From contig CAWBHS010000039.1 in assembly GCA_963788655.1 (NCBI GenBank), positions 110,833-174,832 on the forward strand: a stretch of DNA of 64,000 bases. Direction: 5' to 3'. The DNA is from an uncultured Verrucomicrobiae bacterium. Lineage in GTDB: Bacteria; Verrucomicrobiota; Verrucomicrobiia; Limisphaerales; JAFGQR01. The notes beneath the pieces were generated by a model. It had not been told where the DNA came from. It ran no database searches and saw only the letters and a list, made by a program, of their open reading frames with translations. The number at the start of each line of letters is the position of its first letter. Position 1 is the stretch's first letter. The position numbers were made by a program, and so were the translations under genes. Below, one piece after another: positions 22,580-46,245 of the stretch.

Positions 22580-22650
22580 GGCCCGTTTACCGACCTACCG
22601 GAAATTGCGCATGAGGCAACTCAAACGGAATGGAGGCGTTGAACCGCTAA

Positions 22651-22884
22651 GTCCCGGAGGGACGCCCGACAATAGCCCACGGTTTCAACCGTGGGTATCG
22701 GGTTTGACAAAGAAGCCAAAGCCCCGAAGGGGCGAAAGAAACGTTGCGCTCGATTCCATGCCTCCTAGAATTGGGACGCGGTGGGAAACTCTGTCATTCT
22801 GTCGTCCCCTACGGGACTTATTCATATTCGCCGCTGTTACCCACCGATAAATCGGTGGGCTATTCTCGACCGTCCCTCCGGGAC
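22651..22884. repeat. Composite REP-like palindrome, family C
   Basis: Terminal 14-bp inverted repeat GTCCCGGAGGGACG/CGTCCCTCCGGGAC, inner AATAGCCCAC/GTGGGCTATT, sub-hairpins CCCACGGTTTCAACCGTGGG and CCCACCGATAAATCGGTGGG. Confidence 0.85.
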
Positions 22885-22933
22885 GATGTTGCCTCACCTA
22901 TTGGTTGCCCAGCGTTCAACTCCGCCATCGTCC

Positions 22934-24808: not shown

Positions 24809-24814
24809 ACCGGC

Positions 24815-28170: not shown

Positions 28171-28172
28171 CC

Positions 28173-28835
28173 ATGCCCAACGGATTCTCCAATCAACCCA
28201 AGTTGCTCAAAGGCGCGTTCGTGGATTCGAACCTCCTCGCGTTCCCGCCGCTGATTGTGCCGTTCCAATTTAATCCGGAACGCATGACGCGGCGCAAATC
28301 CACCAATATCCGCACACCGCGATCCCGTCGCGGCCAGGAGGAACAGACACCTTCGAGCGAGGCACTCGGCCAAGCGCAAACCGTCCGAACGTCGCCGGAA
28401 ACCATCAGCTTTGACCTGCGGCTTGATGCGACTGATGCGTTGGATGGCGGCGATCCGATTGCCGGCGAATTCGGCGTGCTGCCGGCTTTGTCTGCCTTGG
28501 AGATGATGATTACGCCGCGCTCCGAATCGTTCTTTGGCGGCCTGCTGGGATTGTCGGCGGACTTTGGTTTCGGGGATCGCCGCAGCACGCCGGTGTTGAT
28601 TTTCGTTTGGGGCCGGCAACGCATTTATCCCATCCGCCTGACCGATCTCAACATCCAGGAAATTGAGTATAATCCGAATCTCAATCCCACGCGCGTAACC
28701 GCCGCGGTCAGCATCCAGGTCATCGCGGGAGACAATCCGTTTTATTTATTTACCCAAGCACAGCGTGAACTCCTGGCCGCGCTCAACCTGGCCAACGCAC
28801 CGGATCTGGCGCGGTCGATTGTCAATATTGGGTGA
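28173..28835 (+). CDS. CIS tube initiator (Afp7-like)
   Basis: LLKGAFV, VPFQFNPERMTR, PETISFDLRLDATD, GVLPALSALE, LIFVWG, NLNPTRVT. Confidence 0.8.
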   Translation: MPNGFSNQPKLLKGAFVDSNLLAFPPLIVPFQFNPERMTRRKSTNIRTPRSRRGQEEQTPSSEALGQAQTVRTSPETISFDLRLDATDALDGGDPIAGEFGVLPALSALEMMITPRSESFFGGLLGLSADFGFGDRRSTPVLIFVWGRQRIYPIRLTDLNIQEIEYNPNLNPTRVTAAVSIQVIAGDNPFYLFTQAQRELLAALNLANAPDLARSIVNIG

Positions 28836-28910
28836 AGAGGGAACCACGAATGGACACGAATGAACACAAATGCGGCAGCAAGCTGCGACAAAGCCGGAGG
28901 CTTATAGGGG

Positions 28911-29203
28911 TGAACGGCTCAAAGCTGAAGCTGGTTTGTCTGCCGGCTTGCGAATCACAGGGTGATATTACTGCGAACGTGCCCTTCCCCCTCACTCCAA
29001 CCCTCTCCCTCAGGGAGAGGGAGCACGTTCGGCGCCCGCGCGGAACAACGACCGTGCTCCCAGCCCTCGTTGCCCAGGCATGTATCCCAAAGCCGGCGGG
29101 GAGGACTGCGACGCCACCAAAGATCCCGACGGGCTCGATAGCTCTTCCCTCTCCCTGGGGAGAGGGTCAGGGTGAGGGGAACCGCCAGCGCCAATTGTTC
29201 AAC
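28911..29203. repeat. ~290-bp element, family E copy 1
   Basis: Diverged direct repeat of 32615-32909; core TTCCCCCTCAC(T/C)CCAACCCTCTCCC...GGGAGAGGG(T/C)CAGGGTGAGGGGAA inverted repeat. Confidence 0.82.
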
Positions 29204-29300
29204 GGCAGCCGATCTTCCCGAAGCAGTCAACCTCTGACAGTCCTTCGGCAAAGCTCGATGTTTTCCCTCCGAATAAGAACTTCACCGTTAAGGACTCAAC

Positions 29301-29588
29301 ATGGTCTATAAAGGCTCTCGTTACAGCAAATCGAACGTGATCGCGCCCGTGAACAGCGCCGGGCAATCACCGCGCGTGCTGGCGGCGCGAGAGATTCCCC
29401 AAACGCGCGGCGTGGTGGAACACGTCGTGGTCGCCGGGGAGCGGCTCGACCACATCGCGCAACGCTATTACAGCGATCCAAAGAAGTCCTGGCTGATTCT
29501 CGACGCCAATCCCGATGTATTGAATCCGCTCGACCTCCTTCAGCCGGGCCGGCGTTTGAACATTCCGCAGAACCGCATCGTAAGCTGA
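29301..29588 (+). CDS. LysM/tail-X-like baseplate protein
   Basis: SRY, HVVVAGERLDHIAQRYYSDPKKSWLILDANP, PGRRLNIP. Confidence 0.85.
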   Translation: MVYKGSRYSKSNVIAPVNSAGQSPRVLAAREIPQTRGVVEHVVVAGERLDHIAQRYYSDPKKSWLILDANPDVLNPLDLLQPGRRLNIPQNRIVS

Positions 29589-30783
29589 TGATCACCGAAG
29601 TTGCCAATCTCTCGATCAACGGCCGCCCGCAGGACGACCTGGTGCCCGACATTGTCGAGATCGAAGTGCAGGAAGACGTGTCCGCCGCGGACGTGTTCCG
29701 CGTGCGCCTGGCCATGACGCCCGGCAGCGATGGCGCCTGGTCGCTGGTGGATGACGATCGCTTCGCATTGTGGAACCGCGTGGCGCTCGAAGCGGGTTAT
29801 CCCGAAGACACTGAAATGCTCATCGACGGCTACATGACGCACATCGAGGTTTGTTTTTCGAACGAAGACGGCGGGGTGTATTTGGAAATTTCCGGCATGG
29901 ACGCCACCGCGCGGTTGGATCTCGAGGAAAAGCAACGCGCCTGGGTCAACAAAAAGGACAGCGAGATTGCCCAGGAAATCTTTCTCGCCACGGCCTGAGT
30001 TACGAAGTCGAAGACACCGTGGCGCGATTGGCGGAGGATGATGCCACCGTATTGCAGACCGAGACTGACATGCGATTTCTGCGGCGGTTCGCGGCGCGCA
30101 ACGGCTTCGAATGTTACGTCAAAGCCGGCAAGGGATTCTTCCGCAGTCCGTCGATGGAAGAACCGCCGCAACCCATGCTGGCCGTCGATTTTGGCGAGGA
30201 AACCAATTTGATTCAGCTCCGGGTCAAAGCCGACGGCACGCCGGCCACCCAAGTTGAAATCCGGCGCATCGATCCGCTGGAAAAACAGGAGGAGTCTGAG
30301 AAGCTGGATCAAACGCCGCGCCGCGAATTGGGCGCGCAGGCACTCTCCGCACTGCGGTCCGGTCAGCCCGATGGCCGCGTTCTCGTCCGCCAACAACCGT
30401 CCGCGTCATCGCAGGAAATGCGCGGCCGCCTCCGCAACGCTTACCAGCCGGCCACCGAATTTGTCCGGGTCGAAGGCGAAGTCGATTCGCGTCCTTATGG
30501 GCACGTGCTGCGGGCTAAGAAATTGGTCACGATCAAGGGCGCTGGGGAGCGGTTCAGCGGATTGTATTACGTGACCCGCGTCCGCCACACGTTTACGGTC
30601 GAAGGGTATGCGCAACATTTCGAGGCCTACCGCAACGGGCTGGGTCTGACGGGCGATGAGGAATTCGGCGCATCCTTGTTGCCGCTGGCCGTGCCCGGCG
30701 GCCTGGGCAATTCCAGCGTCAGCGCCGGCAACCGCGTCTTGCCCGCCCAACAACAAACCGCCACCGTCCCTGCAGGAGTTTAA
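29588..30783 (+). CDS. Baseplate hub (phage late control D / gp27-like); frameshift near 29990
   Basis: EIEVQED, LIDGY, KDSEIA, QTETDMRFLRRFAARNGF, GAGERFSGLYYVTRVRH. Confidence 0.85.
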
Positions 30784-30785
30784 TC

Positions 30786-32581
30786 ATGTCTGTTCCGCCT
30801 CCTCAAATCACCACGCTGCGACGGCAACCGATCATCGATTACGTCACCAAGGACTACGAGGGCTACCGCCAGGCGATGCTCAATCAGATTCCGCTGCTGT
30901 TGCCGAATTGGACTGACCGCAGCGAAAGCGATTTCGGCGTCGCGCTGATCGAGTTGTTCGCGTATGTCGCCGACATCCTCAGCTATTACCAGGACCGCGT
31001 GGCCAACGAATCTTACCTAGCCACGGCCACCCAGCGCCGTTCCGTGACCGAACTGCTGCGGCTTATCGATTACCAGATCGATCCCGGTTTGTCCGCGACC
31101 GCTTATCTGCACGGCGAGGTATCGGCGGATGTCACCGTCAACGGCGCCAACCTGCCATATCGGTTGAAAACGGCTGGCGTGCCTGGCGAACCGGATCAGA
31201 ACTTTGAGGTCACCAAAGAATTTTCATTCAAGAAGCTGAACCAGGCCATCGATCTGACCGCACTTTCCGATCTCGCGGCCGGCACCTCGGCCATTGAACT
31301 CGACCAAGCCCAGCACGCGCTGGCCGAAGGCGACGCCGTGTATTTTGAAGAGCAAACTCAATTGCCCGATGGCTCGATCCAAACCCGCCGTTCGCCGATC
31401 CTGAAGGTCGTGCAAATTCAGGCCGCCAGTGCCAACAAGGATGCGATTAGTTGGCTGCCGCCACTGCCCGAGCCCTTCGATCCGGCGCGAACGACGCTGC
31501 AAGGTAACAACGTGATTGCCTCGCACGGCGAAAACGTGTTCGACGAACCGATCTTCGTTGGCGACGGCACGCCCGGTCAGCGGATGACGCTTGTCACGCC
31601 AACCAGTGTCGCATCTGATCAAGCAGGGGCCATTTCAACGGCGCCGATCGCGGCCGGAACTGGACGTTCACGTGGATGGTATTTTGTGGGAGGAAGCGGA
31701 CAACTTCTTTGCGAGCAAGCCATCCGACACGCATTACACGACCACGGTCGATGAGAACAATTATCTCACGATCCATTTCGGCACCGGCGAACGCGGCGCA
31801 GTGCCGCCGGCGGGGGCGCAGGTCAAGGCCACCTATCGCATTGGGCTTGGCAGCCAGGGCAACGTGGGCGCGGACACGCTGACGGTTTTTCTCACCGCGG
31901 TGCCCGAAATTAAGAGCATCACCAATCCCTACAACGCCTCCGGCGGCGCTGACCGGGAAACCACTGAGGAAGCCAAAATCTCCGGGCCGGGCTCGGTGAT
32001 TGCGCAGGACCGTGCGGTGACGTTGCAGGATTACGACTTGCTGGCGAAGGCCTTTCCCGGTGTGGGTAAGGCCCACGCGCGCGTCGGATTGCGCGGTGGT
32101 TACAAAGTGGTGCAGGTTTTCATCGCTACGGAGAATCCCCAGGTGATCCCGCCGCCGGCACCGCCCGCCGAATTGAAAGATGCACTCAAGCAACATCTCG
32201 AAGCGCGCCAACCGGTCAACCGCATGGCCGGCGTGGACGTGCTCGATCCGGTCTGGGTGCCGATTGACGTGACGGTCGATGTGACGGTGAAAGCCGACGC
32301 TAGTCCGCACGAAGTCGAGCAGAACGTGCGCGACGCATTGCGCGAAGTATCTCGGATTCGCCCGGCAGGAATTTGGTCAGGCCGTGCGCGTGGGCGAAAT
32401 CTTCTCGTTGTTATACCAGGTGGAAGGCGCGGCCTATGCGCTCTTGAAACGGCTGGCCCGCAGCGTGCAACCGGCGCAGTCGCACCAGCATGTTTGCGAG
32501 TTTACCGACGTTGCATTGGCGGAGAACGAATTCGCGTATCCGGGTAAATTGGTGGTGAATTTATTTGGCGGCATCCAATGA
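30786..32581 (+). CDS. Baseplate J-like wedge protein (Afp11-like); frameshifts near 31590 and 32350
   Basis: IDYVTKDY, WTDRSESDFG, LSYYQDRVANESYL, GDGTPGQ, YRIGLGSQGNVGA, SGGADRE, DRAVTLQDY. Confidence 0.9.
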
Positions 32582-32614
32582 GCAACTTTCGGCAACGGCA
32601 GAAACTTGAATCGA

Positions 32615-32909
32615 TGAACGGCTCAAAGTTGGAACTGGTTTGGCGTCATATGTTGGCGAATCGCAGCGCTATCCGGCTGCGGTCGTCGACTTCCCCCTCA
32701 CCCCAACCCTCTCCCCCAGAGAGAGGGCGCACGTTCGTCGCCCAGTAGGAGAAGCGAATGCGCTCAAACGCTTCGTGGCCCAAGTGTCGAATCCGAAAGC
32801 AGGCGGTGACGGTTGCAAAGCAATCAACAATCCAAGCCGATTCGACAGCTGTTCCCTCTCCCTGGGGAGAGGGCCAGGGTGAGGGGAAATCCCGGCGCCA
32901 ATCGTTCAA
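32615..32909. repeat. ~290-bp element, family E copy 2
   Basis: Direct repeat of 28911-29203, same start TGAACGGCTCAAAG and same CCCTCTCCC/GGGAGAGGG palindromes. Confidence 0.82.
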
Positions 32910-32985
32910 TAGCTGTCCATTTTTGCAGACCGTTCAAACTCGAAGAGCCCTCCGGCAAAACCCGAGGCTTCCTAAACAGAGCTAA

Positions 32986-34882
32986 ATGAGCAGCCGTTTC
33001 CAGAGCTTCTCTATCGTTACCTGCCTGGTTTGTATCGGGACAAGGACGAAGCCGGTGAATTGCGCCGTTTCCTCGAGATCATGGCGCTGCCGCTGGAGGA
33101 ATTGCAGGCGAGCATCGCACAACTCAATGACGATCTGTTCCTGGAAACATCGAGGGATGCCTTCATCGCCTTCATCGGCGGCGTGATCGGCGTGCAACCG
33201 GATGCCGTCGGCCGTGCCGCGGGTCCAGCGGACGGAAGTGCGCGAAGCGTTTGCTTTTTATCGCAGCAAGGGACTTCAGCCGCCGCTGCAGAGTTACATC
33301 GAACAACTAACCGGCTGGCGGGTTGCGTTGGTGGATTTCTCCCAGCAAGTCGCGCGCGCGCCATTTGTCGAGGCGATGAATCCAGTTTTGGCACGGCGCG
33401 GTCAGTCCGTAGCGGAAGATCCGCCGGGCAGCGGCAATTTCTATTTTCACGAAGACCAATCACCCCAACCGTTGTTCGATGCGGTGTTGGGCCGTCCAAT
33501 TACGCGGGCGGCAATGCTCGGACACGAGAGCGAATTTGCCGGTGTCGAAGGCCGGTTCTCCATTCAGGAACGCGGCAAGGATTTGTTCACTGCGGACAAC
33601 CCGCCAGCGCTTACCGCGGTGACTGCCGATCTGAATGATTTTGCCAATCCCAAGACGCCCGCTGGCGCAGCGCTGGCGCTCCAGCCGAATCAGATCGCCG
33701 TGGACCCCGAACTGGCGCGTTTCCAATTCGGCGGGCCGCCGCCGTTGGCGGGCAATCTCACGGTGGATTTTCAAACGCTCGTGCCAGCTTCGGTGTCGGT
33801 GCAGACGTTCGACATCCGCGATTCATCTCGCATGGAGCAATTGGGCCGCAGTGACGATCCCGCGCCGTACAGTCTCGACTTTCGCACGCCGCGCCAGCCG
33901 ACGGAAAAGATCGGGCGCATGCACTTCGACAATCACGGCCTGTTCCTGACGCTGGGCCAACCGGTGGCCAATCAGAAACCCAACGTCCTGCCGCTCGGTT
34001 CGCAAAGCGGGCATTTCACGTTCGATAACCGGCCTGTCAGCGTCGTCGATACTGAGGGCGTGCCGCTGCAATTAATGGACGACATTGACGGTTCGCCGAT
34101 CACACGTCGCAAGTTCGGCGGACACGAAGCACTTTTCTGCGGAACACCGCGTGGATTTTCCATCCGCATTCGTGGCTCTCGAAATCACTGATGCTGCCTT
34201 TCAGCCTGCGCTCACGGTGCGGGCTGCTGACCTAACGGATTTCACGCAGCCCAAAGATGTCAACGGCGGCGCATTGGCGTTGACGCCAACGGACGTTGCC
34301 GTGGACCCACAGCTTGGACGTTTCGTGCTGGACCTCGCCGCGTTGAATGTCCAGGCCGAAGACGTGCGTGTCGATTACTTGATCGGTCCCAGCCACAATA
34401 TGACAGACGGCAAACCGTCTGCGCTCTCGACCACCGTGCCCGAGGTCTTTGCCTTTTTGGCGGACGGCCGAGTGCTGGGATTGCGCGACGCATTTGACGG
34501 CACACTGGTCACGACGAAGCTGCGATTCGGCTTGGCGTTGACAGATTTTCACGGGGCCGATCGAGGTTGGCGGATTTACCGCAACGGGGTTGAAGCCAGC
34601 GCCACGTTGCCGGCGGAAGCCAAGGCACTCGATGATGTCACCACGCCCGTGTCGCCCGGACACATCGCCATCGATGTCGAGCGTGGGCGTTTCAAATTTC
34701 CCGCCGGCTTTCTGGCGCCCGAGGACGAAGTCACGGTGGATTTCAGCGCCGAAGAAACATTGGGCGAGGAACAAATTCTAAACAGCTTGATCCAGCGGTT
34801 GCCGCGCAGTTTGCCGGCGGGCGTGGTGCCGGTGGTCATCGATACTCGGCGAATGCCGGTGAATCCAGCGAACCTGAGGTGA
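32986..34882 (+). CDS. Baseplate wedge / tail protein I-like protein with internal repeats; frameshifts near 33000, 33200 and 34180
   Basis: LYRYLPGLYRDKD, LRRFL, DDLFLET, YRSKG, LTGW; three IAVDP/VAVDP/IAIDV...RF units; C-terminal LPAGV. Confidence 0.75.
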
Positions 34883-34892
34883 GGAACAAATT

Positions 34893-37715
34893 ATGTCGCG
34901 AGCCATTTCACGCGAGAGTTTCCAGGAACTGAAAAACTATCTCGGCGTCTATTTGCAGCAAGGTCGGGTGATCCTCGACTCGGACTGGAACGAGAGCCAG
35001 GACATCACGTTGTCGGCCTTGCGCCGGTTGAATCGCGAGGCGTTGGGCGAAGGCAGTCCGAATCGCGGCTTCGCCATTGATCCGGCATTCCCGCCGCCGC
35101 CGTCGCTGTTGCTCGGAACCGTGGACACGTCCGGCATGGACCTCAACCAGGCCATCGGCGCGATTGCCGGCGCGTGTTTTGCCGATCTTCTCAGCCTGCT
35201 GTTGTACCTGATTTTTGGTCCGTTGCTGTTCTTCCTCAATTTCCCCGGGCAGAAGCTCGATGACTTCGAGTCACTGGACGGCTTCGCCTTGTCGTCGCCG
35301 CAAGGCAAACTGCGCATCGGCCGGGATCGGCCGTATTCGGGACGCGGGTTTTTGCGGCTGTCGGGCCATGCCGGCACCGTGACGGTGACCAAGACACTGG
35401 CGAACCTAACGGACTTATCGGCGTTCGAACTGGCGACTTTCCGCTACCGGTTGAATCAACAAACGCCCGGGACGATGAAGTTCTTCCTGGAAGACAATAA
35501 CAACAATCGGTCCGTCTGGCTGGTCAGCAATTCGGCGTTTGGCAAAGAAATCTGGTTGTCGGGTTTCGCCTCGCCGCTGGACCTGCACTTTCGGATTCTG
35601 ACACCGGAATTGGCCGGAGCCGTCCAGGGCAAATCCTACAGCCGTGATCTGGCGACCTTCAGCGGCACCACCCCCATGACGTGGGCCCTGGCCAGCGGAG
35701 TATTGCCGCCGGGTATGACGGTGGCGGCGTCCGGCTCGGGCGCCGATTCGAACAAGGGCAAACTCAGCGGCACGCCCAGCGCCTCGGGCACGTTCAATTT
35801 CCGCGTGCGCGTTACCGATGCCACGAATCTCCAGGCGACGCATGATTACACTCTGGTGGTCAAACCTTCGGGTGACGTGCCGCTGGCCGTACCGCATCCG
35901 GCGGAGATCCTGGGCATGATCACCAAATTCGAAACGCCGACGGGCACGCCGGCTGACTTGACGCGGATTCGCCGTTACGGTTTCGAGTTGTATCAGGATC
36001 CGGCGAATCCATTGGTTTGGGACTTGGATGATTTGCGTCTCGGCAGCAGCGCGCTCGAGTCCCAAATGGGCAGCAACAATTTCATCATCCGCGGTTCGGA
36101 GTTTTCGCAGTTCCTCAGCACCATCACGCTGCTGAGTATTTTGCAAAGTTCGAACCTCACTGGAGACGACAGCGGCGGCGGCAGTGGAGATGATTCGAAT
36201 TCGTTTCTGAACATCCTCGACATGCTGAATACGGACTTCCAATTGTCCGAGCCCAGTCTGGACAACGCTGGCCGGCTGTATGTGGCGGGTTACCCGTGTG
36301 CCATTGTCAAAGATACGCTCTACTCCGAGCAAGCCGATCCCAACGACCCGCCACTCTCACCACCGGCTTCGGGCGTCATCCGGAAGGACACCGTGTATCT
36401 CGATGTCTGGAAGGAACCGGTGACGTTTATCGAAGATCCCGAGATCCGCGAAATTGCCTTGGGCGGTCCCGACACGGCCACGCGGTTGCGGGTGCGCTAC
36501 CGCGTGCGCGTCAACCAGGGCGGCCCCGCCCCCACCGGCAATGGCATCGGGCAAGGCACCCTGGCGACCGAGGGTAATTACACTGGTCAGGCCAACCGCT
36601 ATTACCGCGTCGAGATTGATACGCCGGGTGACATCGGCACTGCGACGTTTCGCTGGTCGGAAGACAATGCTTCGACACTGGGCCGCGTGATCGAGGCGAT
36701 TCCGCCGGGCGCAACAAAGGTGGTGTTGGAAGACGCGTCGGCGTTTCACGCGGGCGACTTCATTCTGATTCGAAAGGAATTTGGCGCCGAAGAACATCAA
36801 GTCAGTTCGGTGTTTGGCAACGTGATTACCCTGCAAAGTCCAACCGGCACCCAATTGGCCGCGTTGCCGGCGGCTGCCAAGGTGCCGGACTTTACCACGT
36901 TTTCCATGGACGACCGGCCAATGGTGCAACGCTGGAATGCCTTTCATGTTCCAGTCACAGTCGATCCGGACGACGCGACCATCTCCGCCGCGATTGATTT
37001 GAATGACGGCGTGCAAGTGCGCTTTGGCGGGCGGGCGACGCGGACCGGCGACTTTTGGAACTTTAAGACGCGTTTCCTCGCCGGCGATGAAGCGTCGGGA
37101 CTGAATCCCGAGACGCGCATCGAGGATTTGAGTTTTCAACGCGCCCGCGGCGTGGTGCATCATTACGTGCCGCTGGCTTTGCTCACGCGCGACGGGGATG
37201 CGTTGGACCCGGATCAAATTATCCAAATTGCCGACCGCCGCCAGCGCATTGGCAATGCCAGCACCGCCGCCAAGGCCTTGAAGAAGATCACCGGCCTGAC
37301 CGGCACCGCCACGACGTTTGTGGATGGCCTGGCGCTGCCGCCCATTGCGCCGGACAGCAAGTTGATGGTGTTTCTGGCCGGCGATCTGTTTGTGTCCACT
37401 GGCGCTTTGCCATCGGACAGCCAGCTCACCATCCGTGTTTCCTTTTACAATGACGACATGACCAATCCCGCCACCGAGCCGGACAAGGGCAAGATTCAGG
37501 ACCGTGAAATTAGCATCCCGGTCAATCGCAAGCCGCAAGGGCAGGAAGTGCCGCTCAATCTCCTCTTCGGCAAGAGCGACACGCCGTTCCTTTTCCTGCC
37601 CATCACGATGGTGCCCACGTCGGTGCAGGTCTTTTTCACCTTGAGCAAAACCGGGTTCACGGTTGAAATGGTGAACATGCAGCTTACTGTTTTGGAACTG
37701 AAGAAAAGCTATTAA
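34893..37715 (+). CDS. DUF6519-domain tail fibre-like protein with a large inserted module
   Basis: GVYLQQGRVILDSDWNE; GRLYVAG; VYLDVW...EIALGGPDTATR; YTGQANRYYRVEI; GDFWNF; GVVHHYVPLA. Confidence 0.82.
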   Translation: MSRAISRESFQELKNYLGVYLQQGRVILDSDWNESQDITLSALRRLNREALGEGSPNRGFAIDPAFPPPPSLLLGTVDTSGMDLNQAIGAIAGACFADLLSLLLYLIFGPLLFFLNFPGQKLDDFESLDGFALSSPQGKLRIGRDRPYSGRGFLRLSGHAGTVTVTKTLANLTDLSAFELATFRYRLNQQTPGTMKFFLEDNNNNRSVWLVSNSAFGKEIWLSGFASPLDLHFRILTPELAGAVQGKSYSRDLATFSGTTPMTWALASGVLPPGMTVAASGSGADSNKGKLSGTPSASGTFNFRVRVTDATNLQATHDYTLVVKPSGDVPLAVPHPAEILGMITKFETPTGTPADLTRIRRYGFELYQDPANPLVWDLDDLRLGSSALESQMGSNNFIIRGSEFSQFLSTITLLSILQSSNLTGDDSGGGSGDDSNSFLNILDMLNTDFQLSEPSLDNAGRLYVAGYPCAIVKDTLYSEQADPNDPPLSPPASGVIRKDTVYLDVWKEPVTFIEDPEIREIALGGPDTATRLRVRYRVRVNQGGPAPTGNGIGQGTLATEGNYTGQANRYYRVEIDTPGDIGTATFRWSEDNASTLGRVIEAIPPGATKVVLEDASAFHAGDFILIRKEFGAEEHQVSSVFGNVITLQSPTGTQLAALPAAAKVPDFTTFSMDDRPMVQRWNAFHVPVTVDPDDATISAAIDLNDGVQVRFGGRATRTGDFWNFKTRFLAGDEASGLNPETRIEDLSFQRARGVVHHYVPLALLTRDGDALDPDQIIQIADRRQRIGNASTAAKALKKITGLTGTATTFVDGLALPPIAPDSKLMVFLAGDLFVSTGALPSDSQLTIRVSFYNDDMTNPATEPDKGKIQDREISIPVNRKPQGQEVPLNLLFGKSDTPFLFLPITMVPTSVQVFFTLSKTGFTVEMVNMQLTVLELKKSY

Positions 37716-37719
37716 GTTT

Positions 37720-38301
37720 ATGGGACGATACATTTTTTCCCGACGGGATCTCCATCCGTTGCGCGGCTTGATCGACTCGCCGCTGGGCAGAGCGACCCTG
37801 GGCGCCACGGTGCCGATCAAACAAACCACCACCGCCCCGACGCACCAGGAGACCTCCGAAGTATCCCTGCCGGTGCCCGTGCAAAGCCAGGAGCAACCGG
37901 AAGGGGTGCCGCTGCACGAGATCCTCAGCGCCGTGCAAACCAAGGTGCCTTCGATCAAAGCGCTGGCCGTCCGCGCCGGCAAGCTCGAGATCAGTTACGA
38001 GAAATCGCCCACGGACGAAGAACGTGAACAGGTGGAGCGGGCGTTGACCACCCCGCAAACGTTCGAGCGCGTGCGCATCGCCCGGCCGGCCCTGCTCGCA
38101 GCGCAGCCCTCGGCGGACTTGCTGGATATTCTCACCAATCCAGCCACGTCGGATACGGACTGGTTGAAAGCCTTTCGCCAGTACGCGGTGGCGAATCTTT
38201 TTCCCGCTCGCAGCGGAACGGCCGGCGCACCGTCGGCCCCGTCGGTCACCGCGGCAACCACCAAGGCCAAGGCAAAAACGACTCGCAGCGGCAACACTTG
38301 A
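37720..38301 (+). CDS. Hypothetical eCIS-associated protein
   Basis: 193 aa, tightly packed between the DUF6519 and gp25 genes. Confidence 0.6.
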   Translation: MGRYIFSRRDLHPLRGLIDSPLGRATLGATVPIKQTTTAPTHQETSEVSLPVPVQSQEQPEGVPLHEILSAVQTKVPSIKALAVRAGKLEISYEKSPTDEEREQVERALTTPQTFERVRIARPALLAAQPSADLLDILTNPATSDTDWLKAFRQYAVANLFPARSGTAGAPSAPSVTAATTKAKAKTTRSGNT

Positions 38302-38318
38302 ATCACCCCGCTTGACTC

Positions 38319-39233
38319 ATGCCCCCCGTTCCGCGCTATCTCGGCAACCAGAAGACGAACGAGTTTCACGACCGTTCGCGCGAGAAGCCGCAGTGTCAAT
38401 TGTCCGAGATTACTGCCCATCATCACGAAACATTCTTCACGCCGGACACCTGGGAACAAGCGGTGCGCGAAGGTTTCGAACCGTGTTTCTTTTGCATCGG
38501 CACGTTCGCTGATCTGGCGGGAGGGGCCGGCGGCATCCTGGCTTCGCCGACCGATTTGCGCGGCCAGGATTTGGGCGGTGGACAGGTTTCGCTCGAATGG
38601 ACGCACCCGGACAACATCGTGGCGCAAGGCATCCGGTTCGATGTCTATTCCAGCCCGGACCCGCTGAATCCATTTCGCACATTGCGCGCCGGCAGTGTGA
38701 CGGATACTTCGGTGGTGTTGCCGGGTTTTGCGAGCGGCGGGGATTTGTATTTTACGGTGGTGGCCCGGCGCGGAGGACAATTGAGTTTGCCGTCGGCCAC
38801 GGCGCTGGTCTCCGTGCAACCGATCCGGGATGATGTTGCGGTGACACCCGCGGGCCGCACCGCCAGCGCGCCTTCCGGACTGGGCTTTCCGTTCAAAATC
38901 GACGGCACCGGCAGTGTCTTTGCCCAGGGCGGCGATCCGTTGTTGCGCGGCAAGATTCTGCAATTGCTCCTCACTGCTCCGGGTGAACGCGTGAACTTGC
39001 CGGACTACGGCACGCGGTTGCGCGATCTGGTGTTTGATCCGAACAACGACGTGCTGGCGGCGACCACCGAGTTCATGATCAATCGCGCGCTCCAGAAATT
39101 TCTCGGCGATGAAATCCGCGTGGACAAGGTCCAGGTGAGCAACCAGGAGAACGAACTGGATGTCGATATTGTTTATTTGCGCAAGGCCGATCTGCGCTTG
39201 GAACGAGTGCGTGTGGGCGTGCCGGTGCCGTAA
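38319..39233 (+). CDS. GPW/gp25 (Afp9-like) protein with N-terminal Cys/His and FN3-like domains
   Basis: C-terminal GLGFPF, ILQLLLTAPGERVNLPDYG; N-terminal YLGN...FH...C...GFEPCFFC; SPTDL...VSLEW...YFTVVA. Confidence 0.88.
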   Translation: MPPVPRYLGNQKTNEFHDRSREKPQCQLSEITAHHHETFFTPDTWEQAVREGFEPCFFCIGTFADLAGGAGGILASPTDLRGQDLGGGQVSLEWTHPDNIVAQGIRFDVYSSPDPLNPFRTLRAGSVTDTSVVLPGFASGGDLYFTVVARRGGQLSLPSATALVSVQPIRDDVAVTPAGRTASAPSGLGFPFKIDGTGSVFAQGGDPLLRGKILQLLLTAPGERVNLPDYGTRLRDLVFDPNNDVLAATTEFMINRALQKFLGDEIRVDKVQVSNQENELDVDIVYLRKADLRLERVRVGVPVP

Positions 39234-39245
39234 GGATGTTGTGCC

Positions 39246-39902
39246 ATGGACGAACTCACCGCCCGCTTTATCGAACAGACCTGGAACAAGTATTGGGGCA
39301 AGTACCGCGGCCTTGTCTCCGACAACAACGATCCGCTGCAAGTCGGCCGTTTGAAAGTGCGGGTTCCCAGTCTGCTGGCGGACACCGACACCGGCTGGGC
39401 CTGGCCGGTGGTGCCATACGCGGGAGCGGACATTGGATTATTTTTCATGCCGCAAGTGGGCGACCAGGTTTGGGTCGAGTTCGAAGAAGGCGATTTAAAT
39501 CATCCGCTCTGGACCGGTTGCAGTTGGGCCAAGCCCGGCGGGCAGAGTGAAATTCCCGCCGAGGCCCAACAATCATATCCCAAGAAGCAGGTGCTCAAAA
39601 CGCCCGCCGGCAATCTCATCGTGATCGATGACAGTTCCGGTCAGGAGTCGATCACCATCCGCGCCAAGAACGACGACCTGTGTCAGATCATTTTTGATGC
39701 GGCTTCGAAAAAAGTCACCGTGCAGGCCAGCGAAGTCGTCATTCAAGGTAACCAGATATTTCCGCCGGAAGGATTGGCCACGAAATCATTTGTCGAACAA
39801 GTGTTCAACAATCACACGCACCCGAGCGGCGTGGGGCCGACCGGCCCGCCCATTCCGGTCCCCATTCCGCACGCAGTGACGACGGTGCTGAAAGCGGAGT
39901 AA
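39246..39902 (+). CDS. Baseplate spike (gpV / gp5 OB-fold) with HxH tip motif
   Basis: GKYRGLVSDNNDPLQVGRLKVRVP, MPQVGDQVWVEFEEGD, C-terminal FNNHTHP. Confidence 0.9.
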   Translation: MDELTARFIEQTWNKYWGKYRGLVSDNNDPLQVGRLKVRVPSLLADTDTGWAWPVVPYAGADIGLFFMPQVGDQVWVEFEEGDLNHPLWTGCSWAKPGGQSEIPAEAQQSYPKKQVLKTPAGNLIVIDDSSGQESITIRAKNDDLCQIIFDAASKKVTVQASEVVIQGNQIFPPEGLATKSFVEQVFNNHTHPSGVGPTGPPIPVPIPHAVTTVLKAE

Positions 39903-40466: not shown

Positions 40467-41879
40467 ATGCAAACCACCACGACATTGGCAAAGAAAACGA
40501 ATCCTCCATCATCAACGGTGATGGCTGGATCCCGTCGCGCAACCAGTCAGCTTCCGCCGCGACAACGGCTGCAACGAACGCTGGGCAATCAGGCATTGGG
40601 ACAACTGCTGCAAAGCGGCGCATTGCAAGCCAAACTGCGCGTCAATCAGCCGCATGATGCATACGAAGCGCAGGCCGATGAAGTCGCGCGGCAAGTGATG
40701 AGCATGGCACCGGCACAATTGCGGTCCCCGGATGCTGTTTCAAACGCGGGCTCAGAAATAGCTCCCGGGCAGACCAACTCCATTTCGGTTTTGGCGCCCC
40801 AAACTGCTCCGACGGCTGGCGAACATTCCCCCACCGAGGCGGGCATCGGCGTGGAAAGCCAACTCCACACCAGCGTCGGCCACGGCCAGCCGTTGGCTCC
40901 GGAAATCCGCGCTTTCATGGAGCCGCGTTTCGGCGTGGATTTCCGCCACGTTCGCGTGCATACGGACGGCCGTGCCGAACGCATGAATCGAGCGCTGAAC
41001 GCCGAAGCATTCACGCATCGCCAGGACATTTACTTCCGGGCAGGCAAACGTCCCGGCAAGGACGCGTTGACGGCGCACGAATTGACGCACGTGGTGCAGC
41101 AAACCGGCAGGGAGCCCGGCACCCGCGCGGAGCTGCCAGGCCTTCAACGGGTCGTGGAAGTGCGGCGGCCAGGCCGGGGCGAAGCGTCGGCGTTTGATCG
41201 GGTGGACGAACTCATCGACCGGCTCAACGGCCTTTCGCCGGCCATCCAATATCATTTCGAAGGTAAGGATGGCCGCGGCGCGATTGAGTACGACGTGGTT
41301 GATGAAGCCGCACTCACCGCGTTCGACCGCCAGATGCGCGCGTTCATTGATCGAGCCGAAATTGTGCCCATGCGGCTCATCACCAGCGCCGGTCGCGTGG
41401 ATGGCCAGGCGTTGCTCGTCGATAGCTACAACCTCGCGTATGTGGATTTGGATGACATGCTCGCGTCCGACAACGTGAGTTTTCAAATGAACCTGGTCCA
41501 CCTGCTGACCGAACGGTTCCGTGTCCGCAATTACGCCCGGCGCATCGGCACGCGCGGCATGCCCGGGTTTGGACCGGAATTCAATCGTGCTCATCAGGCG
41601 GGTATTGACGCTGAAACTGATCTCTTGCGCGACGTCCTGAACGATCCGACCATCCGTTTCACGTCCGAGTTTCGGCGGCCGGGCAATACGCTGGTTTTCA
41701 TGTTCCGCAGTCGTGAGGGCTATGTGGTCTTTCACATATTCGGGGGAACCCAACGCTCGGAAGTCGGCGGCTACTTGTCGGTTTTGACCGCCGATGGCCG
41801 GCGCATTTCGCTGGAAGATTTCCTGGCCGAACGCGCAGCGGCAGCCAATGTCGCTGCCCCGGCTGCTGCTGGACCTTGA
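40467..41879 (+). CDS. DUF4157 protein 1 (candidate eCIS cargo), unknown C-terminal domain
   Basis: LQRTLGNQA, MEPRFGVDFRHVRVH, AEAFT, AHELTHVVQQ. Confidence 0.88.
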   Translation: MQTTTTLAKKTNPPSSTVMAGSRRATSQLPPRQRLQRTLGNQALGQLLQSGALQAKLRVNQPHDAYEAQADEVARQVMSMAPAQLRSPDAVSNAGSEIAPGQTNSISVLAPQTAPTAGEHSPTEAGIGVESQLHTSVGHGQPLAPEIRAFMEPRFGVDFRHVRVHTDGRAERMNRALNAEAFTHRQDIYFRAGKRPGKDALTAHELTHVVQQTGREPGTRAELPGLQRVVEVRRPGRGEASAFDRVDELIDRLNGLSPAIQYHFEGKDGRGAIEYDVVDEAALTAFDRQMRAFIDRAEIVPMRLITSAGRVDGQALLVDSYNLAYVDLDDMLASDNVSFQMNLVHLLTERFRVRNYARRIGTRGMPGFGPEFNRAHQAGIDAETDLLRDVLNDPTIRFTSEFRRPGNTLVFMFRSREGYVVFHIFGGTQRSEVGGYLSVLTADGRRISLEDFLAERAAAANVAAPAAAGP

Positions 41880-42116: not shown

Positions 42117-42197
42117 TCTTGGAGTGCGGCAGTCCTCTGCCGCTTTCGAACGCCCTTGTGGGTCCCAAAAGCGGCAGAGGACTGCCGCACTCCAAGA
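42117..42197. repeat. REP-like palindrome, family A copy 2
   Basis: Perfect 30-bp arms TCTTGGAGTGCGGCAGTCCTCTGCCGCTTT / AAAGCGGCAGAGGACTGCCGCACTCCAAGA. Confidence 0.9.
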
Positions 42198-42248: not shown

Positions 42249-43985
42249 ATGCAGCCCACAACACCCACCCACGCCGGCAAGGATTCGCGCCGAATGGTTG
42301 CACCGATTCAACGTGCAGCAAAGGCGCCAAGCAACGCCGCATTGCCGCCCCATCACCAACTGAATCGCATCCTGGGCAATCGCGCAGCATCGGCAGTGCT
42401 CCAGGCCAAACTGAACGTCAGCCATCCGGAAGACGCCGCGGAGCGCGAAGCCAATCAGATCGCGGATCAAATTACGGCGGCGCCATCTTCTCCTACTCTC
42501 CAGCGCGCCTGCCCGGAATGCCGTAATGGAGTCAAGTGCCCGAAGTGCCGGGAAAAGGAAAAGCAGGCGTTGCACCGCCGAGCTGAATCAAACGCGCCGG
42601 AATCGGCCCACACGGTGCCGGGAGATTTCGTCACCCGGTTGGGCCCAGGCGCGCCACTCGCGACCGCCGAACGCGATTTCTTCGAGCCCCGGTTGGGTTG
42701 CGATCTAAGCCAGGTGCGAATTCACTCTGGACGTGCCGCAGCGGATTCTGCCCGCTCGGTTGATGCAATGGCTTACACGGTAGGCCGCGACATTGTGTTT
42801 GGCGCCGGACAGTATGCGCCGCAATCGAGTGCGGGCCGGTCGCTGATGGCCCACGAACTGGTTCATACCATTCAGCAAGGCGGCACCGGATCACGCCAGT
42901 TGCAGCGCCGGGCGATGCCGTTCAATCCGGAGTCCATTGCCCAACAACTCCGTGAGGCCATGGAAGGTTTGGGCACGGATGAGGACTCGATTTACGCCGC
43001 GTTGGCGGGCCGCACGCCGGACCAGGTCAATCAAATCGCCCAAGCGTATCAACGGCTCACACACCGCAATCTCCAAGCGGACCTGCAAGATGAATTGACC
43101 TCCGGCGAACTGCTCAAACTGGCGCAATATTCCGCCGCGGCTGCCGACACGCCAGAACATCGCGCCGAGGCTGTGGCCATTCGTCTCCGCGAGGCGATGG
43201 AAGGTTTGGGTACGGACGAAGACGCCATTTACGCGGCGCTGAACGGTCGCAGTCCCGACGAGCTGAATGCCATCAAGGAAGCCTACCGGCGCCTCACGAA
43301 TCGAGAACTGATCAATGACTTGAACGATGAACTGAGCGGCGACGAATTGCAGCGCGCGCTCGGCGAACTGGGCATTGCCCCGGAAGTATTTGAGTCCAAT
43401 ACCGAGCTGGGCATGCTCTCGATGGGCAATTTCGATTTCCACTTCCGCAATTGCTCGGTCCTCATTTGGGTGTGGTTGAAATTCCAGTTTACCAACGATA
43501 TCAGCGCCACTGAGCAAACTGATTTCAAGCGCCGCTTCATCGCCGCGGTGCATGGCACCTGGGCGCATTCGGGGTATCATCTGACGGGCAGCCCGAGTTG
43601 CCCCTGCGGCGACGTGCCGATCGAAGTCCACGTGCAGGAAAATCCCGGCACTTATTATCATAAGCTGGTCGATGTCGAGCGCGCCACCGACCAGGAACGG
43701 CGCCCCAAAGTAATCAGCGACATCAATGTGAACCTGTTCACCAGCAACGATACCCTGGCGCACGAGTTCGGTCACGTGCTCGGGCTCTACGACGAATACG
43801 ACGGCGGCTTTTTCGAGAACATCATGTTCTGGCACAAAAACGTGGCCAACGATCCGGATGCGTTGATGGTCACCGGCACGGAGCTTCGTCCACGCTACTT
43901 CGAGCATTACCGGCGACGCGTCCAAACCACGGCGCCGCCGGGATGCGAATACCGGATTTCCTCGCCGGTGCCGCCGGTTCACTGA
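42249..43985 (+). CDS. DUF4157 protein 2 with two annexin repeats and a C-terminal zincin metalloprotease
   Basis: AHELVHTIQQ; 2x LREAMEGLGTDED...DE; TLAHEFGHVLGLYDEY...ALM. Confidence 0.9.
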   Translation: MQPTTPTHAGKDSRRMVAPIQRAAKAPSNAALPPHHQLNRILGNRAASAVLQAKLNVSHPEDAAEREANQIADQITAAPSSPTLQRACPECRNGVKCPKCREKEKQALHRRAESNAPESAHTVPGDFVTRLGPGAPLATAERDFFEPRLGCDLSQVRIHSGRAAADSARSVDAMAYTVGRDIVFGAGQYAPQSSAGRSLMAHELVHTIQQGGTGSRQLQRRAMPFNPESIAQQLREAMEGLGTDEDSIYAALAGRTPDQVNQIAQAYQRLTHRNLQADLQDELTSGELLKLAQYSAAAADTPEHRAEAVAIRLREAMEGLGTDEDAIYAALNGRSPDELNAIKEAYRRLTNRELINDLNDELSGDELQRALGELGIAPEVFESNTELGMLSMGNFDFHFRNCSVLIWVWLKFQFTNDISATEQTDFKRRFIAAVHGTWAHSGYHLTGSPSCPCGDVPIEVHVQENPGTYYHKLVDVERATDQERRPKVISDINVNLFTSNDTLAHEFGHVLGLYDEYDGGFFENIMFWHKNVANDPDALMVTGTELRPRYFEHYRRRVQTTAPPGCEYRISSPVPPVH

Positions 43986-44154: not shown

Positions 44155-44204
44155 AACCTGGCGGAGAATTGGATGAGGCTAGGGATGCAACTCGGAGCTG
44201 TCGG

Positions 44205-46245
44205 ATGAATTACAGCGGACAGACAAAAAGCGCTGACAGGCTGCGCAGCGGTGCAGCCAAATCCAAGGTGGCGCCGCGTCCGGTTTCGGCTTCGGCGCAT
44301 CCCGGGATGCAACTCCAGCGCACGCTGGGCAACCAGGGTGCCCAACGTTTGCTGCGAGCGGGTGTGATTCAGCTCAAACTGAAAATCAGCCGGTCATCAG
44401 ATCGTTTCGAACAAGAGGCCGAGCGAGTGGCCGATCAAGTCGATGCGCGGCGGCGAAACGAAGATACCAACGCGCTCGCGGGTTGGCCCAGCGACTGGAA
44501 CCCCAGTGAATCGCAAGCCGTTTAAGTCCGCAGGACTGGTTGGCGAGGCGCCAACCACAGCGCCCGAGGCGGGCGCGCTCCCCTTTGCAAATGAATCGTT
44601 GTGCTTTGGGTCGAGTTCATCCGGCGAACCCATGCCGCGCGACCTCCGGCAGGAAATGGAAAGTCGGATGGGCGCCGATTTCCGGCAGGTGCGGATTCAC
44701 CGGGATGCGGCATCCGACCAAGCCGCGCGCGCACTGGATGCTCGGGCATTTACGCTGGGCCATCACGTGGCGTTTGCTCGAGACGAATTTGCGCCGGGCT
44801 CGAATGCCGGGCGTCACCTGCTGGCGCATGAATTGGCGCATGTGGTTCAACAATCCGGACCGTCGCCATCGGTTGGCCCAATGATTCAACGCCAGCCATC
44901 CGCGCAGCACGAACCGGAAGAGCCTTCGTTGCCGCCGTTTCAACTTCCGGGCACCGGCTTGACGGTTTTCCCCGGATTGTTCCGGTTGACGAACCTGGGC
45001 GGACTTCAACTCCCGTTGCCCGCCAGCTTGCGATTAACCAATGCGTTGAGCGTGGGCGCCGGGCCGACTTGGATTTTGGACCTGTCGCCGGACGCTTTAG
45101 TGGGCACCATTTTGGGCAATGTGGATTTGTCAGTTTCGAGCGTGCCTGGAACTCCGCCGGATCATGATCCGAGTCCGGCGAACACGGCCCGCATCAGCCT
45201 GGTGCGGCCCATCATCCGGCTCGATCCGCGCACCGGCAAATTGCACGGTTGGGCCACGCTGCAAGTGCCGACTGGCTATCCGCTGACGATCAGCACGCCG
45301 ACCGAGATTTCCGTGGAGATCGAGTCGAGTGAACTGGGTCAGTTCAGCGGTCGCCTGGGCTACGGTCCATTGCACGCGGATTTTCAATTGCGATTTCATT
45401 ATGACACCGGCCGATTCGAGTCCGCGCTGCGACCGGCACTGGCACCGCAAGGCGGAATGGTCGGCTTATGGTCGCGCTTCCAACAGGTGCTGACGGACAC
45501 GGTGCCGGGCATTCAGTTGACCAGCGTTTCGGATGGCCTGCAAAGTGCGCTGCGAGCCTTGACCTCGGGCCAGATTCGCAGCGCGCAATTCGTCACGCGA
45601 ACCGTGGACCTGATCCGCAGCAGCGTTCCCGCCAACGTGAGTTGGGATTCGGTGCGCACGGCCTTGCGGCAATTTGCCGAAGAGTTGACGCATCCGGGCT
45701 TCGCGCTGTCGGGCGGGCTCGGCCTCTTCGGACTGCCGCTTTCAACCTTCCACGCCGAGGCGCCCACGACCGTGCCGCTGGCCCGACCGTTGCTCGGAGC
45801 GCCGACGCCATTCCCGCTGACCTATTCGGCAGGCGGCGTGATCCTAGCGCCGCCGGGCAGCATTACCGACATCTCCGTGCCGGCGTTTGGTTACGCGCGA
45901 TCCGCCTTCGGCGCGACGAGCGGCAGCGCGCTGACGATTGCGGCGTTGCCGACGTTGTCACCGGAGTCGATCAGTGCCGGCAGACCGGTGGTGAATCAAT
46001 TTCCGGTGTATGCCTACGCGGAGTTTTCCTACGTGCGCCGCGTGTCGGAGAGCGTCGATCTCGGCGTGCGCCTGACCGCGCAGGTTTCCACGCCGCAATT
46101 GTTCGGCACGCCCGAGCAACCGTCCGCCGATCCCGCCGAACGCTTTGGGCAACTCCGCGACCAATACCTCGAAGCCACTCAGCAAACTTCGACCCCGGCG
46201 CCCATGCTGCCGAACTTTGGACTGACGCTGTATGGGAATTTCTAA
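44205..46245 (+). CDS. DUF4157 protein 3; frameshift near 44440; beta-rich C-terminus ending in Phe
   Basis: LQRTLGNQG leader in one frame; MESRMGADFRQVRIH, ARAFT, AHELAHVVQQ in the next; ends NFGLTLYGNF. Confidence 0.82.

Follow-up and report, generated by a model that had tools for sequence, protein, structure and literature searches.

In 2012, the name PVC-metallopeptidase was coined for a domain of toxins delivered by Photorhabdus virulence cassette (PVC)-type injection systems, a domain regarded mainly as a releasing, autoproteolytic peptidase (PMC3482391). According to the same survey, several PVC-delivered toxins have an annexin domain that is always followed by an enzymatic toxin, for example an anthrax-lethal-factor-like metallopeptidase or Ntox3; a membrane accessory was the role suggested for the annexin domain. 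Haliangium annexins were subsequently described together with DUF4157 (the PVC-metallopeptidase domain) and either Ntox_3 or a second metalloprotease, Peptidase_M90 (PMC3894181, 2014). DUF4157 was then reported as a core component and toxin marker of extracellular contractile injection systems (eCIS), with Annexin among the eukaryote-like eCIS domains (PMC8213781, 2021), and it occurs in 51.5% of predicted eCIS toxins (PMC11297309, 2024). Its role is unsettled in that chaperone, release, and immunity functions have all been proposed (PMC8213781, PMC11297309). In AlgoCIS, the tube lumen is filled by two DUF4157 proteins, Cgo1 and Cgo2, which share the layout of a disordered N-terminal domain, DUF4157, and a C-terminal domain, which in Cgo1 has a second HExxH motif (PMC8894135, 2022). 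Here we describe a gene of this kind in DNA from an uncultured Verrucomicrobiae bacterium (contig CAWBHS010000039.1, positions 110,833 to 174,832). The 64,000 nucleotides (nt) analyzed are referred to as the window, and the gene lies at positions 42249..43985 of its forward strand.

The gene product is a further example of the effectors of eCIS loci that combine PVC-metallopeptidase, annexin, and toxin, with a toxin module that is unnamed and snapalysin-like. Proteins of Haliangium ochraceum and Microscilla marina have DUF4157, annexin, and a C-terminal enzymatic toxin in the same order and the same linkage to PVC/eCIS loci, and the same roles (releasing peptidase, membrane accessory, toxin) were proposed for them; the set includes gi 262194969, with a C-terminal anthrax-lethal-factor-like/Peptidase_M90 metallopeptidase. 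In contrast to these proteins, the toxin described here belongs to a different family, with the motif HExxHxxGxxD-x-Y and without a Pfam match to Peptidase_M90 or Tox-MPTase. The available text of PMC3482391 speaks of a single annexin domain, whereas two repeats with both Ca2+ sites intact are found here. As for the Tox-MPTase1-5 families of that survey, no Pfam match to such models was obtained, and the words "snapalysin" and "metzincin" occur 0 times in its available text. Cgo1 of Algoriphagus machipongonensis (ALPR1_12695) resembles our protein in its central DUF4157 and C-terminal second HExxH, its disordered N terminus has a putative counterpart in the low-confidence N-terminal region here, and its gene likewise sits at the end of the injection-system cluster beside a second DUF4157 gene. 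Cgo1 was seen experimentally in the tube lumen; annexin repeats are not reported for Cgo1 in the published description, on which (rather than on its sequence) this comparison is based. An earlier reading of the window, made from the letters alone (the sequence-only reading), implied more novelty than the architecture has, which has been in print since 2012 (PMC3482391, PMC3894181, PMC8213781). Our literature search found no bench study of an annexin-bearing injection-system effector, and the supplements of PMC8213781 may list such genes.

RESULTS

Two annexin repeats with intact type II Ca2+ sites

The sequence-only reading had placed at 42249..43985 (+) a gene for a candidate injected effector made up of DUF4157, two canonical annexin repeats, and a second HExxH protease. 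The open reading frame (ORF) is present at these coordinates and codes for 578 amino acids (aa). The combination of DUF4157 with two annexin repeats was confirmed by Pfam, by the positions of the motifs, and by phmmer searches of the PDB. The gene and its parts are as follows.

42249..43985, + strand: whole gene, with N-terminal region, DUF4157, two annexin repeats, and metzincin-like C-terminal domain (ORF list, Pfam, model)
42249..42653, + strand: N-terminal region, aa 1-135, putative loading sequence (low model confidence, hydrophilic, basic)
42654..42887, + strand: eCIS_core/DUF4157 (PVC-metallopeptidase), aa 136-213 (Pfam PF13699, motif, model)
42927..43127, + strand: first annexin repeat, aa 227-293, made up of five helices; its type II Ca2+ site is G240-L-G-T243, capped by E282
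43152..43367, + strand: second annexin repeat, aa 302-373, made up of five helices; its type II Ca2+ site is G319-L-G-T322, capped by E361
43380..43982, + strand: metzincin-like effector module at the C terminus, aa 378-578, an alpha/beta zincin domain whose family is unnamed
43761..43799, + strand: active-site motif HEFGHVLGLYDEY, aa 505-517, with H505, E506, G508, H509, G512, D515, and Y517 invariant in 25 diverse family members
43860..43868, + strand: A538-L-M540, candidate Met-turn (conservation of M540)

The sequence AMEGLGT is present twice, so that one G-x-G-T starts at aa 240 (nt 42966) and the other at aa 319 (nt 43203); in both cases a Glu (E282 and E361) comes after a spacer of exactly 38 residues. 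The sequence-only reading had described both repeats in these terms, and the duplication is also visible in the DNA as a 113-nt direct repeat (42948-43060 and 43185-43297; 73% identity) with a spacing of 237 nt, or 79 codons. The expected match to the Pfam Annexin profile (PF00191) was obtained over two stretches at E = 1.8e-28 and 98.8 bits, against a cut-off of 25. A phmmer search of the PDB matched annexin VI at E = 6.7e-45; among the 60 matches listed there were only annexins, all aligned to aa ~195-376. Strict GxGT-38-[DE] sites were observed twice, compared to 0.01 per sequence in 200 shuffles of the protein. Given these E values and shuffle counts, the observation is real and far beyond chance, its one weaker point being the Pfam scores of the C-terminal domain. 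Strict Ca2+ sites were also common in relatives: among the 23 closest (P0002-P0024), 18 had two, 3 had one, and 2 had none, and among proteins P0001-P0119 two sites were found in 44 and four sites in 24.

The full-length AlphaFold2 model (34 input sequences) had a mean predicted local distance difference test score (pLDDT) of 80.1 and a predicted template modeling score (pTM) of 0.64. Within it, the two five-helix repeats (aa 227-293 and 302-373) were modeled at pLDDT >90, in agreement with the span of ~42925-43370 given earlier for the repeats. Foldseek returned 102 PDB matches at E <= 0.001; the best 50 of these 102 were all annexins or annexin fusion constructs, with 30-34% identity over ~150-160 columns. 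Alignment with VIA-align to annexin A2 (7zvn) gave Z 14.2, with a root mean square deviation (rmsd) of 3.1 Å over 151 aligned residues, so that the annexin fold anticipated by the sequence-only reading is what the prediction for the monomer contains.

In these alignments, model residues 222-376 corresponded to chain residues 64-337 of 7zvn, and residues 216-376 to residues 36-315 of annexin V. Because the ~150 aligned residues span nearly the whole four-repeat core, the annexin pair in the model appears to pack like one I/IV-type half of the annexin core, that is, half of an annexin disc; the alignment is reported by the ends of its ranges only. Sequence alignment, for its part, puts the pair on consecutive repeats such as I-II or V-VI. 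The protein shares with eukaryotic annexins (A2, A5, A6, and others) the Pfam Annexin match, the five-helix repeats, and the canonical GxGT-38-D/E sites. It differs in having two repeats, compared to the typical eukaryotic four-repeat core, and in that a peptidase domain precedes these repeats and a toxin domain follows them. Other repeat numbers are on record for annexins of bacteria (PMC3894181).

A putative C-terminal zincin domain with a snapalysin-like active site

The second HExxH of the sequence-only reading, HEFGHVLGLYDEY at aa 505 (nt 43761), is present and is part of an extended zinc motif of the type HExxHxxGxx(H/D), which reads H505-E-F-G-H509-V-L-G512-L-Y-D515. Conservation was assessed in an alignment of 25 diverse, mostly domain-only family members. 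Residues W438, H505, E506, G508, H509, G512, D515, Y517, G543, Y550, and F551 were invariant in all 25, and E516, E523, W528, D535, M540, R547, and R549 were conserved in at least 90%. The downstream ALM pointed out earlier corresponds to aa 538-540; its Met, M540, is invariant in 34 close relatives and lies 25 residues after the HExxHxxGxxD-x-Y motif, in a part of the model where the turn has low confidence. By analogy, we propose that H505, H509, and D515 bind the zinc and that E506 is the catalytic base, and we count Y517 as part of the same proposed active site. H529 was considered as third zinc ligand and rejected: it is invariant in close relatives only and not in the 25 diverse members, whereas D515 is invariant.

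The Pfam zincin match that the sequence-only reading looked to was not obtained on the C-terminal domain at cut-off. The best such family was Reprolysin_3 (E = 0.0095), which scored 16.9 bits where 22.4 are required, and Peptidase_M6 (15.4 bits against 22), Peptidase_M7 (PF02031; 12.7 bits against 25, E = 0.14), and the NCBIfam M6 model TIGR03296 (21.7 bits against 110.8) also remained below threshold. When a profile of the 25 family members was compared with the PDB, the best match was snapalysin (1c7k/1kuh, 4hx3) at E = 3.4e-4 over ~36 residues, in the active-site stretch only; the alignment covers AHExGHVLGLxDxY and pairs HEFGHVLGLYDEY with AHETGHVLGLPDHY of 1c7k. The next profile matches were IgA protease (E = 0.0069) and then myroilysin. 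The M64 IgA protease, M6 (TIGR03296), and Reprolysin_3 were rejected as identities of the domain, with only ~20-35 residues around HExxH aligning in each case.

The model of the domain alone (aa 378-578) had pLDDT 81.4 and pTM 0.79. A VIA-wide search, which is independent of Foldseek, gave 24 metzincins by title among its best 25 matches (Z 5.4-7.1), including ADAM/ADAMTS proteins, MMPs, astacin/BMP1, snapalysin, ulilysin, myroilysin, and mirolysin; the title of the 25th was uninformative. ADAMTS-5 matched the full-length model at Z 7.4 in VIA. Look-alikes of the C-terminal part in the ESM Atlas, which we treat as leads only, fell into unnamed clusters in 27 of 30 cases; Peptidase_M6 was found on 19% of members in two clusters, and there was one Matrixin cluster at 0.92.

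Snapalysin of Streptomyces caespitosus (MEROPS M7) is thus the best profile match in the PDB and is also the fold match of highest identity (20%, with Z 6.0, rmsd 3.1, and 103 aligned residues). In snapalysin, Asp is the third zinc ligand and a Tyr lies nearby. Unlike snapalysin, the domain here comprises ~200 aa, with extra N-terminal strands and an insert of ~25 residues between the Asp and the conserved Met. Snapalysin is moreover a secreted stand-alone enzyme, whereas the domain here is a module fused into a putative intracellular cargo protein. Because Peptidase_M7 stays below its cut-off and the snapalysin match covers only ~36 residues, we do not file the domain under M7; it is a separate, unnamed zincin family with an M7-like active site. 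The metalloprotease assignment of the sequence-only reading is supported as regards the metzincin-type HExxHxxGxxD-x-Y motif, the conserved Met, and fold matches that are nearly all metzincins, with scores that are moderate.

The C-terminal module and the annexin unit recur in different combinations

A phmmer search with aa 378-578 against 1.84 billion cluster representatives gave 99 matches at E <= 0.001, of which 70 reached E <= 1e-10 and 38 reached E <= 1e-30, so that the C-terminal domain family is small but real. Our Pfam scan took 68 of these 99 representatives; the 31 omitted were mostly short fragments, the weakest matches, and one oversized protein. eCIS_core was found in 21 of the 68 scanned proteins, one of which (P0148) has a T6SS_Tse3_N match preceding the C-terminal module. 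Annexin was found in 6, and 3 of these also have eCIS_core. Single proteins carry WXG100 (P0154, named a WXG100 family type VII secretion target at NCBI, from Rhizocola hellebori) or four PG_binding_1 repeats (P0153). Two had unrelated families only (SpaA_4 in one, minor matches in a 2051-aa protein in the other), and 40 had no Pfam family. In the database names of 10 family members, an organism appeared for P0154 only, and Algoriphagus for none. The C-terminal domain acts like a portable polymorphic-toxin cassette that is found in eCIS and type VII secretion substrates.

The annexin unit shows the complementary distribution. By hand count of precomputed domains, 80 of the best 120 whole-protein matches (the query included) have both PF00191 and PF13699, and 31 of those 80 additionally have PF14521. 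A Pfam rescan of 12 whole-protein matches, picked for varied precomputed domains, showed the layouts DUF4157 + annexin + Aspzincin_M35 and DUF4157 + annexin + Gln_deamidase_2, and in P0109 five annexin repeats followed by a RelA_SpoT module. Since DUF4157 and Annexin occur together in 80 of the 120 best matches, with at least three toxin types (the module described here, Aspzincin_M35, and Gln_deamidase_2), the annexin unit, usually a pair or two pairs, looks like a recurrent, general adaptor between the loading module and various toxins.

Among species-representative genomes, 11 loci were confirmed, 2 of them clear relatives of the C-terminal module; metagenome contigs yielded 11 loci, which were mostly too short for context. 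Flanks were usable at six loci. Of the two with DUF4157, L015 has a DUF6519/beta-helix protein and a further DUF4157 gene upstream, and at L016 the upstream flank contains CIS_TMP. The other four loci, whose protein lacks DUF4157 (L001, L002, L019, and L020), had neither DUF4157 nor contractile injection system (CIS) genes in their flanks.

DUF4157 and the putative loading region

The PF13699 match (eCIS_core, formerly DUF4157) covers profile positions 1-78 of 79 at E = 1.6e-30 and 105.5 bits, against a cut-off of 22. The first HExxH, HELVH, is intact at aa 202-206 (nt 42852-42866), and aa 131-210 were modeled at pLDDT ~90 or more. As in other PF13699 effectors, the domain precedes a variable C-terminal toxin part, and the gene adjoins CIS genes.

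In the region preceding DUF4157, aa 1-5 and 7-43 had pLDDT <50 in the full-length model, which is a mere proxy for disorder. The region has no hydrophobic segment (highest 19-residue Kyte-Doolittle mean, 0.86), and the pI of aa 1-50 is 12. A Sec signal is unlikely on both of these grounds. By analogy with Cgo1 and Cgo2 of AlgoCIS, we regard the N-terminal region as a putative loading sequence. In an alignment, the motif QLxRxLGNxA...LQxKL...ExEAxxxAxQ was common to the N termini of all three DUF4157 paralogues of the locus. The N-terminal region also has a zinc-knuckle-like double CxxC (CPEC-x5-CPKC, that is, CxxC-x5-CxxC) at aa 88-100 (42510-42548), and one CxxC is kept at this position in most relatives (QRKCxxCE).

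DUF4157 is flanked by a hydrophobic-Gln-Arg/Lys motif on either side, LQRA at aa 84-87 (42498-42509) and LQRR at aa 218-221 (42900-42911). We counted this motif in relatives P0001-P0215 by position relative to HExxH, with expectations from shuffles; because the proteins are related, the counts below overstate independence.

Motif 95-130 residues before HExxH: 65 of 102 proteins, 4.0 expected
Motif 8-32 residues after HExxH: 50 of 121 proteins, 2.7 expected
Motif 32-56 residues after HExxH (control): 2 of 121 proteins, 3.0 expected
Motif 56-80 residues after HExxH (control): 7 of 120 proteins, 3.0 expected

The positions of the motifs suggest processing sites, as would fit the "releasing peptidase" role put forward in 2012.

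The gene directly follows a contractile injection system cluster

The sequence-only reading had tied the gene to an eCIS. This linkage was borne out by Pfam, NCBIfam, and the match of the sheath to a solved structure, which together define a contractile-injection cluster directly in front of the gene. The neighboring features are as follows.

20167..39902, + strand: contractile injection system cluster (Pfam, NCBIfam; sheath match to 8bky)
40467..41879, + strand: paralogue 1, DUF4157 protein of 470 aa (Pfam)
42117..42197, no strand: palindrome resembling repetitive extragenic palindromic (REP) elements, in the upstream intergenic region, with 30-nt arms that are 100% complementary and a 21-nt loop
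44080..44152, no strand: downstream copy of the palindrome, with 1 and 2 mismatches in the 26-nt core
44169..46245, + strand: paralogue 3, DUF4157 gene in two overlapping frames (leader ORF 44169-44525, DUF4157 frame 44443-46245)

The cluster has genes for a sheath, a gp19-type tube, T4_baseplate, a Pvc16_N terminator, an AAA ATPase, CIS_tube, a GPD-like protein, Baseplate_J (two ORFs), a DUF6519/He_PIG fibre-like protein, gp25, and a Phage_base_V/VgrG-related spike. The sheath ORF (20167-21618) has no Pfam match and was recognized by its similarity to the solved sheath 8bky (E = 7.5e-26). Neither PAAR nor CIS_TMP was matched among the cluster ORFs scanned with Pfam and NCBIfam. At the 3' end of the cluster, after the spike gene and a 183-aa ORF, three DUF4157 genes stand in tandem, and the annexin gene is the second of these. 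They account for the only three PF13699 matches in the assembly (8.96 Mb, 115 contigs, 86% complete), and its only PF00191 matches are the two annexin repeats described here. Between the annexin gene and paralogue 3 (43985-44169), no small immunity-like ORF was found; the palindrome occupies this gap.

Two genes of the locus show apparent frame breaks. The baseplate protein (TIGR02243/Baseplate_J) is split between ORFs 30786-31754 (profile positions 1-115) and 31591-32547 (positions 393-623), which are in different frames. In paralogue 3, the conserved leader LQRTLGNQ...EQEAERVADQV lies in 44169-44525, and the open frames overlap at ~44383-44525; this gene is either frameshifted or affected by an assembly indel. 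Soil-metagenome contigs (three runs of one study) matched 30500-46500 only as pieces of 151-283 nt, and among the pieces listed none lay on 44383-44525 or on the Baseplate_J overlap at 31591-31754, a stretch with almost no depth. The depth peaked at 41714-42247 and 43850-44383, the bins that hold the palindromic repeats, as expected of a dispersed repeat.

The annexin and C-terminal parts were matched in 0 of 40 related genomes (1 of the same genus and 39 of the same order). In one of the 40, G022, the DUF4157 part alone was matched, and its contig also has a Pvc16_N gene. Neither CIS nor effector nor Pvc16_N was found in the genome of the same genus, which is 93% complete.

Several further features of the window were seen in passing. 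The C-terminal half of paralogue 1 (~250 aa) has no Pfam family and is probably another unnamed effector module, and the C-terminal part of paralogue 3 (450 aa) also has no Pfam family. The 183-aa ORF that separates the spike gene from paralogue 1 (39905-40456) is Pro/Ala rich and without a Pfam or NCBIfam family. A copy of the palindrome is also present at 1036-1106, 41 kb upstream, and its 26-nt core is matched 6 times, against an expectation of 0. A candidate regulator, a response-regulator-type sigma-54-dependent activator (17602-19023; Sigma54_activat, AAA_lid_14, HTH_8), is encoded just before the CIS cluster. Downstream of the effectors there are large proteins with beta-helix, fn3, PA14, Ig-like, and lectin domains (46434-48347, 53712-57486, and 57796-63866), one of which is 1758 aa long.

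DISCUSSION

On balance, we put a probability of about 0.7 on the reading that the gene product is an injected, calcium-dependent, membrane-docking metalloprotease and the cargo of the adjacent eCIS-type system. The course of events that we infer, from loading through Ca2+ and lipid binding to proteolysis at a target, would begin with synthesis in the cytoplasm without a Sec signal. The putatively disordered, basic N-terminal region would serve as the loading sequence by which the AAA+ ATPase of the cluster threads the protein into the tube lumen, and contraction would expel it into or onto the target cell. There, the DUF4157 metallopeptidase, its HELVH intact, may trim the cargo protein. The annexin repeats, folded into a compact half-disc of the I/IV kind that carries both type II Ca2+ sites on the same face, would attach the protein to membranes of anionic phospholipids at high Ca2+, and the snapalysin-like metzincin domain (H505, H509, and D515; E506; Y517; Met540) would cleave membrane-proximal target proteins.

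Several points weigh against this interpretation. Cytosolic Ca2+ is normally far below what annexins require, and docking through the annexin repeats would therefore need a rise in Ca2+. No peptidase model of Pfam or NCBIfam lies above its cut-off on the C-terminal domain, and a Foldseek search of the PDB with the domain model gave no match at E <= 0.001, the best being MMP-13 (E = 0.023) and snapalysin (E = 0.033). All VIA Z scores of the domain are <8 and possibly reflect a mere common arrangement, and the stretch from D515 to the Met is poorly modeled (pLDDT 49-57 in blocks 141-170 of the domain model; pLDDT <50 for aa 515-519 in the full-length model). Because of these Z scores and the poorly modeled stretch from D515 to M540, we call the domain metzincin-like, describe its active site as of the snapalysin type, and do not assign it to M7. 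The two frame breaks, in Baseplate_J and in paralogue 3, may reflect a defective machine or indel errors of the assembly. Furthermore, the toxicity of Cgo1 in Escherichia coli is independent of either of its HExxH motifs (PMC8894135), and a disordered N-terminal region is needed for loading while DUF4157 is dispensable for it (bioRxiv 10.64898/2026.05.27.728243). In view of both results, the motifs alone are no proof of a proteolytic mechanism.

As to the target of such a protease, we somewhat favor a eukaryotic microbe over a bacterium, given the annexin itself, the lack of an adjacent immunity-like ORF, and the Gln_deamidase_2 partners in relatives. That the same cargo is aimed at bacteria, with the annexin binding phosphatidylglycerol/cardiolipin or envelope Ca2+ and the protease attacking envelope or cytoplasmic proteins of competitors, seems to us rather unlikely. 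What keeps it under consideration is mainly the toxin module on a WXG100 protein (P0154) and the five annexin repeats before RelA_SpoT in P0109, to which may be added the occurrence of the module behind T6SS_Tse3_N (P0148) and together with four PG_binding_1 repeats (P0153). PG_binding_1 is, however, also the fold of matrixin pro-domains and need not mean the cell wall. Several DUF4157 effectors are toxic to E. coli (PMC8213781), but PVC-type toxins often lack immunity genes, for which distantly related targets were suggested (PMC3482391), and annexin is mainly a eukaryotic lipid-binding fold, counted among the eukaryote-like eCIS domains (PMC8213781). Also quite improbable in our view is a self-releasing, wound-homing protease: DUF4157 would cut at LQRA and LQRR to free an annexin-metzincin unit once injected, and the annexin half-disc would bind the membrane at the puncture, on the inner leaflet only where Ca2+ floods through the injection wound. 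If true, the protease would be put where host annexin-based membrane repair assembles.

A broken injection machine would leave the protein undelivered even though its gene is intact. The split of Baseplate_J/TIGR02243 over two overlapping ORFs and the leader of the third DUF4157 gene in another frame point in this direction, as does a search of the single genome of the same genus, which found neither the CIS nor the effector; the 0 of 40 relatives with the annexin and C-terminal parts is also what would be expected of an accessory island. However, the 578-aa frame is open with every catalytic and Ca2+-site residue intact, and errors in a draft assembly of 115 contigs may account for the frame breaks; we regard a decaying or inactive island as very unlikely. 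The C-terminal domain might instead be no toxin at all, in that it could be a protease for self-directed processing or maturation, or else a noncatalytic binder, with the annexin serving particle assembly or release at the membrane of the producer. The unsettled role of DUF4157 (PMC8213781, PMC11297309) and the HExxH-independent toxicity of Cgo1 (PMC8894135) leave some room for this view. Against it, the active-site residues are invariant, and the module stands at the extreme C terminus behind DUF4157, annexin only, or WXG100, like polymorphic-toxin domains (PMC3482391); we consider it extremely doubtful.

The gene is of interest beyond its own locus. Annexin-bearing effectors of injection systems have been catalogued since 2012, and the gene described here is a candidate for the first experimental test of the role of their annexin repeats. 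It is suited to such a test by its two intact Ca2+ sites, by its small size of 578 aa, and by toxin-module catalytic residues that lend themselves to mutation. With its C-terminal domain, a zincin family that is so far unnamed, snapalysin-like in its active site, comes into view among both eCIS and type VII secretion substrates. If Ca2+-dependent docking is true, the annexin pair would provide engineered eCIS cargo with a membrane-targeting tag that is simple and portable.

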